From a virus: DNA of 64,000 bases. Position 1 is the first letter of the stretch; every line of letters begins with the position of its first letter. Both the position numbers and the translations under genes were made by a program. The notes under the pieces were generated by a model. That model worked only from the letters and a program-made list of their open reading frames with translations. It ran no database searches and was not told the DNA's origin. Positions 30,974-50,919 of this stretch are shown piece after piece. Location of the stretch: IMG/VR virus record IMGVR_UViG_3300021197_001743, positions 56,039 to 120,038 of that record. One strand, 5' to 3'.

Positions 30974-31741
30974 ATGGCTATAAATATAGAAGCGATGCGT
31001 GCCAAACTTAATGCATCTAAAAACGGCAACAAAGGTCAATCAAACAGTACGAAATGGCGACCAACTCAAGGAGACCAAACCATTCGTATCCTTCCTACAG
31101 CGGACGGAGACCCCTTTAAGGAGTTCCACTTCCATTATAATGTAGGCAAAAACCCCGGGATTATGTGCCCCAAACGAAATCATGGAGAAGACTGTCCAAT
31201 TTGTGAATTTGCGTCTAAATGTTGGCGTGAAGGAGTAGAGAACGACGATAGTACGCTTAAAAATGAAGCAAAGAAGCTTTTTAGTCGTAAGCGCTATTAC
31301 TCTCCAATTATCGTTCGCGGCAAGGAAACCGAGGGTGTAAAAGTTTGGTCTTATGGGAAGACCGCGTATGAAACCTTGCTGGGTTATGTCCTCGACCCTG
31401 ACTATGGTGATATCACAGACCCTGACGTGGGCACTGATATTGTTCTCAATTATGACGTACCGGGAACTCCGGGGTCCTTCCCTAAGACCACCCTTAAACC
31501 TCGACGACGACCGAGTGTTCTTTGCGACGATGCAGTAGCAGATTGCGATACATTAATTCAATCGATCCCAGATATTGGAAGCTTATTCGATAGAAAGACA
31601 ACAGAAGATGTTCAAGCATACCTTGACGATTTTCTCTCTGGCGACTCTTCTTCGGAAAGCAGATCTACTGAAACAACTAAATATGCAAAAAACAACACTA
31701 ATGTCGATGAGGAATTTCAAAAATTCATGAATAACGATTAG
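30974..31741 (+). CDS. ssDNA-binding protein, T4 gp32-like
   Basis: IRILP...PF.E.HFHY, CP....EDCPICE zinc site, DYGDITDP..G.D, acidic C-terminus. Confidence 0.85.
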   Translation: MAINIEAMRAKLNASKNGNKGQSNSTKWRPTQGDQTIRILPTADGDPFKEFHFHYNVGKNPGIMCPKRNHGEDCPICEFASKCWREGVENDDSTLKNEAKKLFSRKRYYSPIIVRGKETEGVKVWSYGKTAYETLLGYVLDPDYGDITDPDVGTDIVLNYDVPGTPGSFPKTTLKPRRRPSVLCDDAVADCDTLIQSIPDIGSLFDRKTTEDVQAYLDDFLSGDSSSESRSTETTKYAKNNTNVDEEFQKFMNND

Positions 31742-33067: not shown

Positions 33068-33134
33068 AATTTAAATACCGCAGGGAGGCACGGGTTTACA
33101 GGTGCCTCACGTTATAGAACCGAGTGAGCAACAA

Positions 33135-33998
33135 ATGAAGAACATAGTTGAAATATATAGCAAGTTTTGCAGAGACAAAGGAATAAAGTATCAGTTGGAC
33201 GATACTGTTTGTCCGTATGATAACACAACTCTCTTTTGCCCAGCAGGCATGCAACAGTTTAAAAAGAAGTTCAACTCGGAAGAAACGGGAACAGTCGCAA
33301 ATGTTCAATCTTGTATTAGAATGAACGACTTGGAAGAAATTGGTGATGGTACTCATTATCTTTATTTTGATATGATTGGGCTGTTCTCGTTTCGCTCTAT
33401 GTCCGTCCAGCAAGCAGTTGACTTCTGGATGGAATTCCTTGAAGATATTCTAGAGATAAAAGTCGACTACATAACAATACACCCAGACAAGCTCGAAGAG
33501 TGGAAAAGTCTTTATGATAACTACGATGTGGAGATCAGAGAAGATGAAGAGTGTAAATGGACAGACGGACAGATCGGAGGATACTGCACTGAGTTCTATA
33601 AGGATGACGTGGAGATTGGAAACATTGTCAATCCATTGGGCAATTGTATCGATGTTGGCTTCGGCTTACAAAGACTAAATATGTTTGTGAATGGAAGAAA
33701 CGAAGAGACCAAAGAAGAAATACTTGTTCTAACTTGTGAAAAGCTTTTATACTCTGGCTACTATCCAAGCAACAAGGAACAAGGGTATGTGTTCAGGAAA
33801 CTGTTGAGAGAGCTTTATAGAATTCAATCAACTTGGGATAACGAACACTATCAGAAAGAGAAAGAGCGCCAAGACAAAGTAATTAAGCGCTATAACAAAG
33901 ACAAAAATAAGGCCAAATATCAGGGTAAATCAAAAGAGTGGTGGTTCGACACCATGGGAGTTGATATTGACTTTATCGAGAGTATAGAAAATAAATAA
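33135..33998 (+). CDS. alaS: minimal alanyl-tRNA synthetase (aminoacylation and tRNA-recognition parts; no editing or C-Ala domain)
   Basis: DNTTLFCPAGMQQFK, VQSCIRMNDLEEIGDGTHYLYFDMIGLFSF, VEIGNIV, IDVGFGLQRL, PSNKEQGYVFRKLLR; ATG 33135 preferred over GTG 33102, which sits in a hairpin. Confidence 0.9.
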   Translation: MKNIVEIYSKFCRDKGIKYQLDDTVCPYDNTTLFCPAGMQQFKKKFNSEETGTVANVQSCIRMNDLEEIGDGTHYLYFDMIGLFSFRSMSVQQAVDFWMEFLEDILEIKVDYITIHPDKLEEWKSLYDNYDVEIREDEECKWTDGQIGGYCTEFYKDDVEIGNIVNPLGNCIDVGFGLQRLNMFVNGRNEETKEEILVLTCEKLLYSGYYPSNKEQGYVFRKLLRELYRIQSTWDNEHYQKEKERQDKVIKRYNKDKNKAKYQGKSKEWWFDTMGVDIDFIESIENK

Positions 33999-34007
33999 GG
34001 AGCAAGT

Positions 34008-34082
34008 ATGCATAACTACTTTTACATAGACCCAGATGATGATTATGACGATGATGACTGGGATTACGGCTACGATTTATAA
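34008..34082 (+). CDS. 24-aa acidic/aromatic micro-ORF (MHNYFYIDPDDDYDDDDWDYGYDL)
   Basis: AAGGAG RBS 5 nt before the ATG; fills the AlaRS-RecA gap; absent from the ORF track. Confidence 0.55.
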   Translation: MHNYFYIDPDDDYDDDDWDYGYDL

Positions 34083-34100: not shown

Positions 34101-35228
34101 GTGCCTTTGGGCAAAGTAATTAAAATGGCTACAAAACCGGGAAAAATAGACATCAGTGCAATGAAAAAATTCGTCAACAAAAAAGTTGGCATGGACGTTG
34201 CTCATGATCTTCGGGAAGACAATCCCACCGAAGTAAAACAATGGATCCCTACGGGATCTAGATGGCTTGACTCTATTACAGTTAGAGGAAAGTATGGCGG
34301 AATACCCGTCGGCAAGATTACTGAAATTGCAGGTTTGAGCTCTGCTGGTAAATCTTTTATGGCTGTGCAAATAGCCGCAAATGCTCAAAAAATGGGTCAA
34401 ACAGTTGTCTATTTCGACGCTGAAAGTGCTATTGACCCTGTTTTCTTAACTAATTCTGGTGTGGATATTGATGATAACTTTCTTTATGTGCAAGCGGTAT
34501 CAGTTGAGAAGACGTTAGAGACCATTGAGGACCTTTTGTCTGAATACTCAGAGACGCAATTCTTGTTTATTTGGGATAGTATTGCTGCTACCTCATCTGA
34601 GAAGGAAATAGAATCTGATTTCAATCCCCAATCCACAATGGCAGTTAAGCCTCGCATTTTCGCAAAGGCTTTTCCTAAACTAACAATCCCTCTCGCTAAT
34701 CAACAGTGTACTCTTGTGTTGATTAACCAGTTGAAAACCAATATCACAAGCAACATTGCAGAGAAATTTACGACACCTTACGTCGCCCCCGGCGGAAAGG
34801 CAATAGAATATTTTTGTTCAATGCGTGTTTGGCTAACGAAACGTAAAGCAAAGGCAGCATATGTTACTGATGATACTGGATTGAGGGTAGGCTCTGAGGT
34901 GAAGGTCAAGATTGAGAAATCTAGATTTGGAACTGAAGGTCGCACTTGTGGCTTCAAGATACTTTGGGGAGACAAAGTTGGAATACAAGATGAAGAGTCT
35001 TGGTTAGAGGCCATAAGACTATCTGGCACCGATAGATATCGAGTTGGTGGTGGTTGGTACTACCTCACTGACTCAAAAGGCAAGGAGCATAAGTTCCGAG
35101 CCTCTGAGTGGGTCTCAAAGCTCACTGATAAAAAGTTTCGTTCGTTAGTGTTCGAAATAATGGATGAAGAGATTATCAAAAAGTTTGATACTGAGGGTAA
35201 AAACTTCTCTATTGAAGATGATAAATAA
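34101..35228 (+). CDS. recA: RecA/UvsX recombinase
   Basis: WIPTGS..LD, GGIPVGKITEIAGLSSAGKS, FDAESAID, WDSIAA, INQL, PGGKAIEY; exact start (34101/34107/34125) uncertain. Confidence 0.93.
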   Translation: MPLGKVIKMATKPGKIDISAMKKFVNKKVGMDVAHDLREDNPTEVKQWIPTGSRWLDSITVRGKYGGIPVGKITEIAGLSSAGKSFMAVQIAANAQKMGQTVVYFDAESAIDPVFLTNSGVDIDDNFLYVQAVSVEKTLETIEDLLSEYSETQFLFIWDSIAATSSEKEIESDFNPQSTMAVKPRIFAKAFPKLTIPLANQQCTLVLINQLKTNITSNIAEKFTTPYVAPGGKAIEYFCSMRVWLTKRKAKAAYVTDDTGLRVGSEVKVKIEKSRFGTEGRTCGFKILWGDKVGIQDEESWLEAIRLSGTDRYRVGGGWYYLTDSKGKEHKFRASEWVSKLTDKKFRSLVFEIMDEEIIKKFDTEGKNFSIEDDK

Positions 35229-43526: not shown

Positions 43527-44324
43527 GTGAGCGATTTAGATTTATATTATGATAAGATTAATGTTGGAAAGACCATAACCTGTCTTTTGCATTCTTTTCG
43601 AACGGAGACCCCTTGTGTATTATTGGAGCCCTCTCCGCCTTTTAATTTAGACATTAGGTATGACAATTATGATTTTTCATGGCTCGGTATTGATTCCCCG
43701 AAACCACTGCAAATTTGGGACCGACTTTGTTTTTTACTGAGCATGTCGGGCATTTTGTTGTTTCCAAACAATGTCCTGAATTATCGTAGGGAAGAAGGGA
43801 CACTTGTAATTGTTTCAAATCACAATAAGAGAATTAATGTCCATTACGAAAAAATAAATGTTTTCGATGAACAAGAGACGGGCTGGAGCTATGTATATGA
43901 CTATTATGATTGGAAGTCCGGAGGCCAACACAAATTTGATGAGATAAATGATACTGATGAAAACTTTATAAAGAGTATAAAATTCTATTCTTCTGAGAGA
44001 GACATGGTAGGAAGCCACATAAAGGATCTTGTAGGGGTCTCGTACTTGTCAGAAGAGGAACTGTCATCGATGGAAACTTCTCATGTTTATTCTAGGTTGA
44101 AAATTTTACAAATGCTAAGAACAAATGGTATCTTAGGTAATGTGGTTGGTTATGGCCCAACCGGCAGAGCCAAATATAGAAAGCCTGTTATAGAATTTCG
44201 GAAAAGAATTATAAAGCCTGATTATATACCTGAGATTTCTTTTAAAGATGCTTATGAGATGGAACAGAAAAGAGGATACACATGGAAGTTACTAGAGAAA
44301 ATAACACAACATACTTCCACTTAG
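43527..44324 (+). CDS. hypothetical protein
   Basis: GTG start with GGAG RBS; overlaps the nucleotidyltransferase-like gene. Confidence 0.6.
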   Translation: MSDLDLYYDKINVGKTITCLLHSFRTETPCVLLEPSPPFNLDIRYDNYDFSWLGIDSPKPLQIWDRLCFLLSMSGILLFPNNVLNYRREEGTLVIVSNHNKRINVHYEKINVFDEQETGWSYVYDYYDWKSGGQHKFDEINDTDENFIKSIKFYSSERDMVGSHIKDLVGVSYLSEEELSSMETSHVYSRLKILQMLRTNGILGNVVGYGPTGRAKYRKPVIEFRKRIIKPDYIPEISFKDAYEMEQKRGYTWKLLEKITQHTST

Positions 44325-46286: not shown

Positions 46287-46362
46287 GGGGGTATAGCTCA
46301 GTTGGGAGAGCGTCTGCCTTGCACGCAGAAGGTCGTGAGTTCGATCCTCGCTACCTCCACCA
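46287..46362 (+). tRNA. tRNA-Ala(UGC)
   Basis: GGGGGTA/TACCTCC acceptor stem with G3:U70; TCTGC-CT-TGC-AC-GCAGA; GTTCGAT; encoded CCA. Confidence 0.96.
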
Positions 46363-49064: not shown

Positions 49065-49396
49065 GGGCTCGCAATGGCTTCGACGGGTTAGAATCAAGGG
49101 GAGAGTGCATGCAGGCGTGAATCAGCCTTAATCGTTCAAATTTTTATAAACGCAAACAATAATTTGTTTTTCGACGAAGTCGCTTTAGCGGCTTAATCGG
49201 GTGGTCGCCTCGAACCATCTATCCAAGAGAGGCAAAACAACAGGACAGTTGTAAAAATCACATCTCCTTCGGCCACGGACTATGGAGAATAAAACGCAGT
49301 GGATACCTCGCTAGGAGGGAAATAACTAGACAAGCATGTGAATGACTCAAACTAAGACTAGCGCGGACAGGGGTTCGATTCCCCTCGAGTCCACCA
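49065..49396 (+). ncRNA. ssrA: tmRNA, tag (A)ANNNLFFDEVALAA
   Basis: 5' GGGCTCG..GGCTTCGACGG; 3' AGGGGTTCGATTCCCCT-CGAGTCC-ACCA with G3:U70; ATAAAC-GCA resume codon at 49152; tag ORF ends ALAA-TAA at 49196. Confidence 0.95.
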
Positions 49397-49739: not shown

Positions 49740-50620
49740 GATATCTATTACCTTTTCTTCTGTCCTGTACAGAAGTGTCTATCAACAAAATACCAAATGA
49801 GCCAAGCGACTCCGCGGTTGTAATTGTAGACACCACAGAACCATCGTCAGAGCCAGCCGTAGAGCCCTCTGTAGAGCCTATGGAAGGCATCGGAGGGTAT
49901 GTACACTACTATCTTCAACAAGTGGCGTGTCCGGCTTGTATGGGCGAAGCAAATGAGATAACTGTTGAGATGAATGCTAGATTTCATGAGCCAATTAATG
50001 ATTCATATACATCTTGGATTGTCCCGCAGGGCCAATGCACACAAAATTTAACTCAAACAGTTCCCTCTGTGCCGTTAATGGACAAAGGATCGGAAATTAA
50101 AACAAGAGCAGACGGGAATATCTTATTTGCATACAGAACATCGCAGAATAGCTATTACAACTCTTGGAATACAGACATATATTATACTCGTGATGCTGTA
50201 CACTACATATCCGAGGAGAACAATTACGAATTTGCTTCTTTTACATCGCTCCATGGGTTTGATTCAATCGAACCTTATGAATTACGATATGTGGACCCAG
50301 CTTATGCCTTCTCAGCCAAGATTTACAGATCGGGTCCTACCTTTTGGTGGTCTCCCAACGGCTCAAATAGCATGTTCACGATAACACTGGCAGTATACAC
50401 ACCAGATGGCTCTTCTTTACTGGGTTATGTTGCTTGCTCAAGCGGAGACACAGGGATGATGACTATCCCGGGACAATATCTAGAAACTTATCCTTATTGG
50501 TCACTAGTTGCAGTACACATGACAAGACACAAGATTGAATTGGTTCCTTGGGTAGAACAGAACACTTATATCGAGACACACATGGAGTGGTCAGTTATCG
50601 GCACAGGTCATATAGAATGA
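49736..50620 (+). CDS. putative lipoprotein
   Basis: MRYLLPFLLSC lipobox-like start; EPSSEPAVEPSVEP linker; CPAC. Confidence 0.65.
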   Translation: MRYLLPFLLSCTEVSINKIPNEPSDSAVVIVDTTEPSSEPAVEPSVEPMEGIGGYVHYYLQQVACPACMGEANEITVEMNARFHEPINDSYTSWIVPQGQCTQNLTQTVPSVPLMDKGSEIKTRADGNILFAYRTSQNSYYNSWNTDIYYTRDAVHYISEENNYEFASFTSLHGFDSIEPYELRYVDPAYAFSAKIYRSGPTFWWSPNGSNSMFTITLAVYTPDGSSLLGYVACSSGDTGMMTIPGQYLETYPYWSLVAVHMTRHKIELVPWVEQNTYIETHMEWSVIGTGHIE

Positions 50621-50919
50621 CCAAGAAACAAAAAGACATATTAATCAAGGACCGGCAGAAGATCGATCGACCTAAAAAATACAAGGTTGTTTTCTACAAT
50701 GACGACTTTACTCCGATGGATTTTGTCACTTTGCTTTTGATGAACGTATTTAATAAAGGAAAGCAAGAAGCGCAAAGTATAATGATGCAGGTTCACAAGC
50801 AAGGAAAGGGGATAGCAGGTGTCTACTCAAAACAAATCGCTGAAACTAAAATCGAAACAGCAAAAATGTATGCAATCGATGCCGGCCACCCTCTGCATGC
50901 AGAAGCCGAACCAGAATAA
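50617..50919 (+). CDS. clpS: ATP-dependent Clp protease adaptor
   Basis: PKKYKVVFYNDDFTPMDFV, MMQVHKQGKGIAGVY...IAETK, HPL; ATG 50617. Confidence 0.95.
   Translation: MTKKQKDILIKDRQKIDRPKKYKVVFYNDDFTPMDFVTLLLMNVFNKGKQEAQSIMMQVHKQGKGIAGVYSKQIAETKIETAKMYAIDAGHPLHAEAEPE

Follow-up and report, generated by a model that had tools for sequence, protein, structure and literature searches.

A stretch of 64,000 nucleotides of viral DNA (hereafter the window), which forms the last 64 kb of the 120,038-bp IMG/VR virus record IMGVR_UViG_3300021197_001743 (a record judged 66% complete), encodes a miniaturised alanyl-tRNA synthetase (AlaRS) of 287 amino acids. The class II AlaRS catalytic fold and its motifs are present in this mini-AlaRS, and we consider it likely that the protein is a stand-alone, editing-free AlaRS that charges tRNA-Ala at the acceptor stem. 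An earlier note on the same DNA had described an AlaRS homologue of fewer than 300 residues that carries motifs 2 and 3, and this observation of a miniaturised AlaRS is confirmed by the Pfam match, the fold and the profile alignment. The gene is found at the following position, numbered as in the window:

33135 to 33998, + strand: mini-AlaRS coding sequence (open reading frame list, translation, Pfam PF01411, AlphaFold model, AlaRS fold at Z 24-25).

In a Pfam search, the mini-AlaRS matches tRNA-synt_2c (PF01411) with an E-value of 6.5e-21 and a score of 74.9 bits (cut-off 30.3), and phmmer retrieves AlaRS fragments of Aquifex aeolicus and Escherichia coli from the PDB with E-values of 5e-14 to 1e-9. 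A profile of 26 family members matches AlaRS chains in the PDB at E-values of 8e-33 to 4e-28, and profile-profile alignment with hhalign to 21 full-length AlaRS extends over 302 columns (E = 4.4e-49). The AlphaFold2 model calculated from the 26-sequence alignment has a mean predicted local distance difference test score (pLDDT) of 95.1 and a predicted template modelling score (pTM) of 0.88, and its top PDB matches by Foldseek are AlaRS aminoacylation fragments, namely 9jc7 (E = 1.7e-16), E. coli 3hxu, and A. aeolicus 1riq. Superposition on bacterial AlaRS fragments with VIA-align, described here by aligned ranges and not residue by residue, gives Z-scores of 24.2-25.2 with 284-286 of the 287 residues aligned (root-mean-square deviation = 3.9-4.3 Å), where model residues 1-286 span residues 1-416 of E. 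coli AlaRS, 1-405 of A. aeolicus AlaRS, and 59-462 of Archaeoglobus fulgidus AlaRS. Human AlaRS fragments fit no better than the bacterial ones (Z = 23.9-24.8), with three of the four aligning over only 248-252 of the 287 residues. An alternative identity as a protein resembling GlyQ, the alpha subunit of glycyl-tRNA synthetase (GlyRS), was considered; GlyQ is of similar size (~300 residues) and has a related class II core. This identity is rejected, with only the first ~205 residues aligning at a Z-score of 15-16, compared to 25 for AlaRS, and a Pfam scan of the mini-AlaRS gives no match to the GlyQ family. GlyQ requires a beta subunit for tRNA binding, whereas the phage mini-AlaRS has no conserved partner gene.

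The motifs and helices that make up the protein are encoded as follows:

33306 to 33392, + strand: class II motif 2 region, residues 58-86, by profile alignment to PDB AlaRS (R62 = E. coli R69).
33552 to 33677, + strand: rest of the alanine/ATP pocket including motif 3, by profile alignment and family conservation.
33765 to 33821, + strand: tRNA-recognition helix PSNKEQGYVFRKLLRELYR, in which N213 corresponds to E. coli N303, the U70-contacting Asn.
33843 to 33902, + strand: single long linker helix, residues 237-256, from DSSP of the model, with hhalign gaps of ~31 and ~10 columns.
33939 to 33971, + strand: WWFDTMGVDID, residues 269-279, in which D272 corresponds to E. coli D400, the G3-contacting Asp.

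Motifs 2 and 3, QSCIRMNDLEEIGDGTHYLYFDMIGLFSF and IDVGFGLQRL, are both aligned and conserved. E. coli residue numbers were taken from the PDB chain numbering in the profile alignment, which reproduces R69 and K73, and conservation was counted over 140 aligned sequences, the window protein and 139 relatives 270-335 residues long. R62 is kept in all 140 sequences, N163 (E. coli N212) and D173 (E. coli D235) are each retained in 139, and D65, W142, E153, E160, G175, and R180 correspond to E. coli D76, W170, E183, E209, G237, and R242, respectively. V165, the counterpart of E. coli V214 and of Methylomonas V204, is invariant in the 26 sequences. Across the mapped pocket positions, conservation is 139-140 of 140, and the counterparts of R69, W170, N212, D235, G237, and R242 are all present in the mini-AlaRS; these E. 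coli residues form the alanine/ATP pocket. The pocket Asn and Asp are described as critical in PMC12945691, and D235 in PMC12143591.

The earlier note had further quoted two strings from the tRNA-recognition domain as carrying both residues that read the G3:U70 base pair. Both are present, the first, PSNKEQGYVFRKLLR, at residues 211-225 (positions 33765-33809) and the second at residues 269-279. In E. coli AlaRS, G3:U70 is read by N303 and D400, with N303 named as the Asn that contacts U70 (PMC10036535). The helix PSNKEQGYVFRKLLR aligns with PSNE(G/N)RGYVLRR in both hidden Markov model (HMM) and profile-profile comparisons, which places N213 on N303; in the hhalign alignment, PSNKEQGYVFRKLLR falls on PSNEGRGYVLRR and WWFDTMGVDID on LYDTYGFPlDL. 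The C-terminal WWFDTMGVDID stretch is not significant by HMMER alone, and the pairing of D272 with D400 comes from hhalign. This placement agrees with where the structural alignment ends, model residue 286 falling on E. coli 416 and A. fulgidus 462, as known by ranges. The turn around D272 is maintained across the family (W269 in 135, W270 in 132, T273 in 135, and G275 in 138 of the 140 members), the WW pair preceding D272 is specific to the mini-AlaRS family, and R221, K222, and R225 of the recognition helix are conserved. The D272 position is Asp in 117 members and Glu in 12, and the N213 position is Asn in 90, Pro in 34, and another residue in 16. The structural reading of the earlier note is right for this copy, where N213 and D272 both align with the G3:U70-reading residues, but the Asn is no constant of the family.

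The 287 residues cover residues 2-404 of full-length AlaRS in the hhalign alignment, ~116 fewer than the aligned 403, and the shortening is mostly internal, in the form of six in-frame deletions. These remove 4 residues in motif 2, ~19 residues between the E153 strand and the E160 strand, ~13 residues ahead of motif 3, ~29 residues behind motif 3, and ~31 and ~10 residues around the lone remaining linker helix. The motif 2 deletion ('GGKH') was considered as a loss specific to the mini-AlaRS and rejected, since 11 of the 21 full-length AlaRS likewise lack GGKH. The tRNA-recognition domain is reduced to ~95 residues, with the protein ending 15 residues past D272; the complete domain, which extends to approximately E. 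coli residue 461, is absent, as the model stops at E. coli 416. As the earlier note had stated, the helical linker is shortened, to one helix with gaps on either side, and neither an editing domain nor a C-Ala domain is present: the protein stops at residue 287, and there is no tRNA_SAD editing domain (PF07973) anywhere in the 120-kb record. One subgroup (P0146, P0157, P0164, and P0171) retains the segment after motif 3 and, together with P0153, which is without that segment, splits from the other 20 minis in a quick tree. As this subgroup both retains the segment and branches apart, it fits a scenario in which the family would have arisen by stepwise condensation.

A protein one third of normal length, with a score far below the alaS equivalog cut-off, might be a recently truncated pseudogene or an assembly artefact, and the earlier note had named the former as a finding that would overturn its reading. 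The probability of this is close to nil. The six deletions are in-frame and mostly internal, length is held in more than 100 listed relatives, the fold is predicted with confidence, and the same sequence was assembled in sequencing runs from several studies. Nonsynonymous divergence (dN) from 15 relatives is 0.12-0.14, with synonymous divergence (dS) saturated, and across the 30 of 120 pairs with 0.05 < dS < 3 the median dN/dS is 0.037 (range 0-0.072). The mini-AlaRS is under purifying selection, and with a dN/dS of ~0.04, the conserved length of its relatives and the internal in-frame deletions, the pseudogene or fragment reading is rejected.

The family to which the mini-AlaRS belongs is large. 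A word-indexed search finds 1006 homologues at E ≤ 0.001, of which the best 120 are 248-304 residues long and 54-94% identical, and an exhaustive search gives 49 cluster representatives at E ≤ 1e-30. None of the 49 exceeds 403 residues and no fused or longer forms are seen among them, with no search aimed at longer proteins. In a quick maximum-likelihood tree, the 26 minis lie on one side of a branch with a Shimodaira-Hasegawa-like approximate likelihood ratio test (SH-aLRT) value of 98, apart from full-length and ~420-residue forms. The gene is found on 79 IMG/VR loci, on contigs of 2 kb to 608 kb, including a complete 85-kb genome with terminal repeats, and many phages with genomes of 85-600 kb carry a member of the family. 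Separate from these, the AlaRS forms P0186, P0233, P0254, P0264, and P0267 are 419-435 residues long and end near PF01411 position 430-436; P0254 is on a 262-kb contig and another ~420-residue form on a 65-kb contig, and the sole viral locus retrieved with P0254 (L083) has the appearance of a full-length gene with a frameshift. Judging by such sequences, natural AlaRS limited to the aminoacylation domain may be less rare than published work would indicate.

The mini-AlaRS family is shared by phages and Alphaproteobacteria and is not phage-only. A bacterial scan covering one genome per prokaryotic species found 74 loci whose products are 46-59% identical to the mini-AlaRS and of the same length, carried on chromosomes and large plasmids, mostly of Rhizobium, Neorhizobium, Inquilinus, Phyllobacterium, and Caulobacteraceae. 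The bacterial translations retain the PGNKEQGYVLRKLLR and EWWFDTHGI motifs. In PLSDB, 90 Rhizobium plasmids carry the family under the annotation "alanine--tRNA ligase-related protein", an example being WP_028743334.1 on pRL9 of Rhizobium johnstonii 3841, and by sequence the mini-AlaRS is a member of this condensed family of ~280 residues in RefSeq. The pRL9 copy adjoins two toxin-antitoxin pairs, Phd/YefM-PIN and Xre-RES (L188, 7062-9846), and ABC transporters. The bacterial copies are accessory paralogues, and Rhizobium has a normal AlaRS besides. The Rhizobium and alphaproteobacterial proteins resemble the phage protein in size, in the same two motifs, and in 50-55% identity over the full length (residues 3-287); unlike the phage copy, they sit on chromids, plasmids, and chromosomes, and many of their genes are without an in-frame start and carry an Ala-codon leader. 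In neither setting does a conserved partner gene accompany the family. Across 39 phage loci (window included), the only protein cluster found in more than 7 loci is the gene itself, with other apparent recurrent clusters rejected as antisense open reading frames (ORFs) inside the mini-AlaRS gene; in 60 bacterial loci, neighbours such as PdxA, alcohol dehydrogenase, and ABC transporters are common to at most 19; and no trans-editing factor, C-Ala-like protein, or carrier is a conserved partner in the 39 phage or 60 bacterial loci.

A truncated AlaRS with just two domains can also be a transferase. AcmF, from ascamycin biosynthesis, is a truncated AlaRS-like protein that moves alanine from Ala-tRNA to a nucleoside sulfamate (PMC12945691), and, like the phage protein, comprises only the aminoacylation and tRNA-recognition domains. 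By this analogy, the mini-AlaRS could be an AcmF-type Ala-tRNA-dependent transferase or another repurposed enzyme, which would bind Ala-tRNA-Ala charged by the host AlaRS and hand the alanine on to an acceptor outside the ribosome, for instance a nucleoside, lipid or cell-wall precursor, or the phage DNA. Phages do use aminoacyl-tRNA outside of translation, as in the use of Gly-tRNA-Gly by Mom (PMC13219725), and the status of the family in Rhizobium, as an accessory paralogue alongside a normal AlaRS, would suit such a role. However, AcmF carries N219Q and D232E and most of its ATP/Ala residues are gone (PMC12945691), whereas 139-140 of the 140 mini-AlaRS sequences retain the aligned Asn, Asp, Arg, Trp, and Gly. 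Furthermore, no acceptor-making or biosynthetic gene is conserved nearby in the 39 phage and 60 bacterial loci, and the phage gene, unlike that of AcmF, lies outside any biosynthetic cluster, making a transferase improbable.

For a synthetase that charges at the acceptor stem, a working precedent exists in a giant virus. The Tupanvirus mini-AlaRS that the earlier note had mentioned is real: TuAlaRS, of 461 residues (Antika et al. 2023), is without editing and C-Ala domains, charges tRNA-Ala and microhelix-Ala G3:U70-specifically by binding the acceptor stem only, and is called by its authors the only natural aminoacyl-tRNA synthetase consisting of the aminoacylation domain alone (PMC10036535). 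It is this acceptor-stem-only charging that provides the precedent for the mechanism proposed here. Both proteins are viral, naturally shortened AlaRS without editing or C-Ala domains; TuAlaRS keeps the whole aminoacylation domain of ~460 residues, whereas the phage protein has ~116 residues deleted internally and is missing the end of the recognition domain. In addition, TuAlaRS has P and T in place of N and D and is akin to the enzyme of its eukaryotic host (PMC10036535), while the phage protein keeps N and D and is closest to bacterial AlaRS. Descent of the phage protein from a eukaryotic host AlaRS, as in the Tupanvirus case, is rejected, as its best matches are bacterial AlaRS and the mini family forms a separate branch. 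The only structural neighbours of the mini-AlaRS in BFVD are giant-virus AlaRS of 464-513 residues. The best structural and sequence matches are to engineered fragments (E. coli 1-441, 3hxu; A. aeolicus 1riq/3htz; and Methylomonas AlaRS429, 9jc7), which share the pocket and the helix order of the phage protein, and of which AlaRS429 is active without an editing domain (PMC12143591). These fragments are man-made and 429-465 residues long, as opposed to 287, and the phage protein is without the L219 loop, the segment after motif 3, two recognition helices, and everything past E. coli residue 416. Our literature search found no paper on an AlaRS family of ~280 residues in phages or Rhizobium and no published characterisation of the RefSeq 'alanine--tRNA ligase-related protein'; the available text of PMC7162821, PMC7824862, and PMC12619734 does not mention AlaRS, and supplementary tables of these papers may list such genes.

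Two RNAs that the enzyme could charge are encoded in the same genome, where they are two of only three tRNA-like genes in the 120-kb record (the third being tRNA-Asp):

46287 to 46362, + strand: tRNA-Ala(UGC) (ARAGORN; Rfam tRNA, 68.2 bits), a likely substrate.
49065 to 49396, + strand: transfer-messenger RNA (tmRNA) with the tag ANNNLFFDEVALAA (ARAGORN; Rfam RF00023, 90.4 bits), a possible second substrate.

As read from the sequence, the tRNA-Ala acceptor has G1-C72, G2-C71, G3-U70, A73, and an encoded CCA, and the tmRNA acceptor has G1-C72, G2-C71, G3-U70, and an encoded CCA. Of 45 phage loci scanned with ARAGORN, 13 have a tRNA-Ala no more than 10 kb from the gene. For distance counts, four near-duplicates were removed, leaving 41 phage loci. 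Within 1 kb of the gene, tRNA-Ala is the commonest tRNA (7 of 27); it accounts for 11 of 59 tRNAs within 2 kb and for 9 of 140 at 2-10 kb, an enrichment with a Fisher p of 0.017, which, as the loci are related and not independent, overstates the evidence. Three 88-nt 'Ala(AGC)' tRNAs (L061 8567-8654, L062 9338-9425, and L070 9338-9425) have U3:A70 instead of G3:U70, with the other tRNA-Ala calls being 73-79 nt long. In a 332-kb phage (L079, 8152-8438), two tRNAs with the anticodon CUA, which ARAGORN labels 'Pyl', lie 1.6-1.8 kb upstream of the mini-AlaRS; they are possibly amber suppressors and would hint at stop-codon recoding.

The presence of a G3:U70 tmRNA ~15 kb downstream of the gene bears on a further proposal of the earlier note, that uncorrected mischarging would matter little for tmRNA; on this reading, the enzyme would be dedicated to charging tmRNA. 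The tmRNA has an encoded CCA end and a ClpS adaptor homologue beside it (50548-50919, PF02617, E = 8.6e-30, 1.2 kb downstream), and in 4 of 45 phage loci ARAGORN reports a tmRNA no more than 10 kb from the gene, with two of the four overlapping tRNA calls. Across the family this association does not hold. Among 25 large phage records that have the gene, only 4 contain a tmRNA scoring above the Rfam cut-off, and among the 9 that are at least 90% complete, 3 do; a count of '22 of 25' obtained at E ≤ 0.001 was rejected, as these matches are mostly tRNA-sized and 4 reach the gathering score. Matches of 197-230 nt and 32-38 bits occur in three records (G008, G015, and G024). No tmRNA is found in the 84-kb record of the closest long relative (82% identical), which keeps its tRNA-Ala, nor in the complete 85-kb genome; none is linked to the Rhizobium copies in the 14 loci scanned; and a search of the 120-kb record, at 66% completeness, gave no SmpB. 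The tmRNA rationale for the loss of editing is weak, and a dedicated tmRNA-charging enzyme appears very unlikely.

Support for a true AlaRS function of the family comes from how its genes begin and what its proteins are made of. A survey of the region between the upstream stop and the aligned N-terminus in 145 loci found no in-frame ATG in 57 and no in-frame ATG, GTG, or TTG in 36. In all 11 start-less loci inspected (phage L026, L047, L061, L068, and L069; bacterial L126, L130, L134, L143, L172, and L185), a strong Shine-Dalgarno sequence precedes a short +1-frame ORF whose last residues are (D/N)-Ala, with a stop within 0-7 codons, as in the Rhizobium leader M-S-P-R-D-A-stop; these leaders sit ~10-45 nt upstream of the aligned N-terminus. 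The window copy has a plain in-frame ATG, and reading by eye revealed no ATG-initiated leader in its other frames. In relatives, the leader fits a mode of regulation where synthesis of the enzyme would respond to the supply of Ala-tRNA. The mini-AlaRS contains 4 alanines in 287 residues (1.4%), the third lowest share of 101 ORFs in the genome (median 5.9%); the median is 2.1% for the 140 family members, three of which have no alanine, and 3.8% for the first 450 residues of the 21 full-length AlaRS. Together, the Ala-codon leader and the low alanine content fit an enzyme made when Ala-tRNA is scarce, supporting a true AlaRS function. The lowest alanine share in the genome (0.75%) belongs to a 265-residue ORF at 43527-44324 with no Pfam match, which might share the alanine-sparing logic of the mini-AlaRS.

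A broader extension of this, which we put forward tentatively and regard as doubtful, is that the ~280-residue family is an emergency AlaRS sufficient in itself and, among natural enzymes, the smallest that can read G3:U70, with a serine-rejecting pocket and an alanine-poor make-up. The alanine-poor protein could be made when Ala-tRNA is short, for example upon host shut-off or an attack on host tRNA-Ala or AlaRS, and the frameshift leader with its Ala codon would serve the same end in relatives. The condensed pocket may refuse serine at activation, so that editing would be dispensable. In Methylomonas AlaRS429, L219M or L219F allows V204 to exclude serine at activation (PMC12143591). The L219 loop, between the N163-V165 strand and motif 3, is deleted in the mini family and the V204 counterpart is invariant, which raises the possibility of intrinsic serine rejection and does not show it.

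In the mechanism that we favour, that of an editing-free AlaRS, alanine would be activated with ATP in the complete class II AlaRS pocket and moved to the 3′ end of RNAs bearing an alanine acceptor stem. The acceptor stem alone would be bound by a trimmed module, which consists of the helix with the Asn, a single linker helix, and the WW-D-T-x-G turn, and the mini-AlaRS would carry out no proofreading. The targets would be host tRNA-Ala, the phage tRNA-Ala(UGC), and probably the phage tmRNA. Given the location of the gene in a replication and recombination module, the probable role of the mini-AlaRS is to raise or safeguard the supply of Ala-tRNA while the phage infects its host. The homology, the fold, the conserved pocket, the purifying selection, and the G3:U70 RNAs of the same genome are shown here; that the protein aminoacylates, that it depends on G3:U70, and that it has this physiological role are what we infer.

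Several observations weigh against this mechanism. The score against the alaS model TIGR00344 is 74.1 bits, far under the equivalog cut-off of 457, and the superposition on AlaRS is by aligned ranges and not at residue level. In 50 of the 140 members, the N213 position is occupied by P, S, A, H, or Q, and canonical reading of U70 can therefore not be general in the family, for which activity as a whole is predicted. Cover of the gene in RNA libraries is partial, could stem from DNA carry-over, and is no proof of transcription: contigs of two metatranscriptome runs from one study match parts of it (165-240 nt, 0-2 mismatches). Leaving out two 88-nt 'Ala(AGC)' genes that lack G3:U70 weakens the tRNA-Ala enrichment to p = 0.054, and tRNA-Ala is missing from several phages that carry the gene. 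The one tRNA of the complete 85-kb genome is an Arg, and a complete 279-kb genome with 25 tRNA matches shows no tRNA-Ala in the 13 loci scanned. Likewise, a 96%-complete record of 245 kb has tRNA-Met and one odd match, and an 88%-complete record of 233 kb has seven tRNAs and no Ala. The link of the mini-AlaRS to a phage tRNA-Ala is not obligatory, and, with tRNA-Ala optional and tmRNA rarer still across phages, the enzyme must usually act on host tRNA-Ala. Finally, the C-terminal third of the usual aminoacylation domain (E. coli roughly 417-461) is gone, and E. coli fragments shorter than 461N make adenylate and charge tRNA poorly.

This last point gives rise to the alternative that the protein forms an adenylate or binds tRNA and does not complete aminoacylation, acting as a producer of alanyl-adenylate (Ala-AMP), as a sensor, or as a decoy for tRNA-Ala or for factors of the host. 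The recognition domain of ~95 residues, with nothing past E. coli residue 416, is in keeping with such a protein, as E. coli fragments without residues 369-461 make adenylate and are not known to charge tRNA. In opposition to this, the two acceptor-stem contact motifs and the basic helix are strongly conserved, the gene tends to cluster with tRNA-Ala genes, and the Ala-codon leader in relatives points to Ala-tRNA supply. We consider a non-charging protein unlikely, and the editing-free AlaRS remains our preferred reading.

The gene itself is delimited as follows. From the ATG at 33135, the ORF list and translation give 287 codons and a stop at 33996-33998; the frame is open from a GTG at 33102, which would give 298 codons, and the gene caller took this longer form for P0001 (298 residues). 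As 15 close relatives (~80% identity) start at the ATG position or one codon later, the ATG at 33135 is taken as the likely start, and by this comparison the extension is probably not translated. The features around the gene are:

30974 to 31741, + strand: gp32-like protein, upstream of the mini-AlaRS.
Between the gp32-like gene and the mini-AlaRS, + strand: 381-residue ORF with no Pfam match.
33084 to 33108, + strand: hairpin GGAGGCAC-N10-GTGCCTC, with a 7-bp stem and a 10-nt loop, 27 nt upstream of the mini-AlaRS ATG.
33102 to 33134, + strand: possible 11-codon N-terminal extension from the in-frame GTG, by open frame.
34101 to 35228, + strand: RecA/UvsX-like protein, downstream of the mini-AlaRS.

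The long ORFs flanking the mini-AlaRS are all on the + strand, and a 5′-3′ exonuclease, a DnaB-like helicase, and a ribonucleotide reductase are encoded farther along; together these genes form a replication and recombination module, and the phage is a tailed one from the sea. Immediately behind the mini-AlaRS stop lies a very acidic ORF of 24 codons with an AAGGAG ribosome-binding site (34008-34082); it has no counterpart downstream of the gene in any of 14 close relatives and, on this comparison, is probably not a gene. The hairpin occurs once in the window and in the 120-kb genome. In one seawater DNA run, the bin that contains it has a summed contig depth of 1862, compared to 40-62 beside it, and many of its contigs carry flanks unlike the window; the hairpin looks like a short element common to many other sequences. 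No other locus has it upstream of the gene (L002 and L003, which do, are cut from the same genome), and elsewhere the pattern appears only in L020, far from the gene of that locus.

AlaRS is regarded as the synthetase that holds its four-domain plan throughout life, the single studied natural exception being TuAlaRS. If the mini-AlaRS charges tRNA, it would be far smaller than any AlaRS shown to work, at about a third of the normal size, and would bring down the size at which the G3:U70 "operational RNA code" can still be read, revealing which parts of the recognition domain cannot be spared. It would also offer a compact and possibly orthogonal synthetase for cell-free and synthetic-biology use, and the phage genome, with enzyme, tRNA-Ala, and tmRNA together, is a ready test set. 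If it does not charge tRNA, the family would be a new repurposed synthetase paralogue with an intact adenylation site. For the biology of its carriers, a charging enzyme would mean that alanine charging is a recurrent bottleneck, against which phages of many sizes and some Rhizobia insure themselves.

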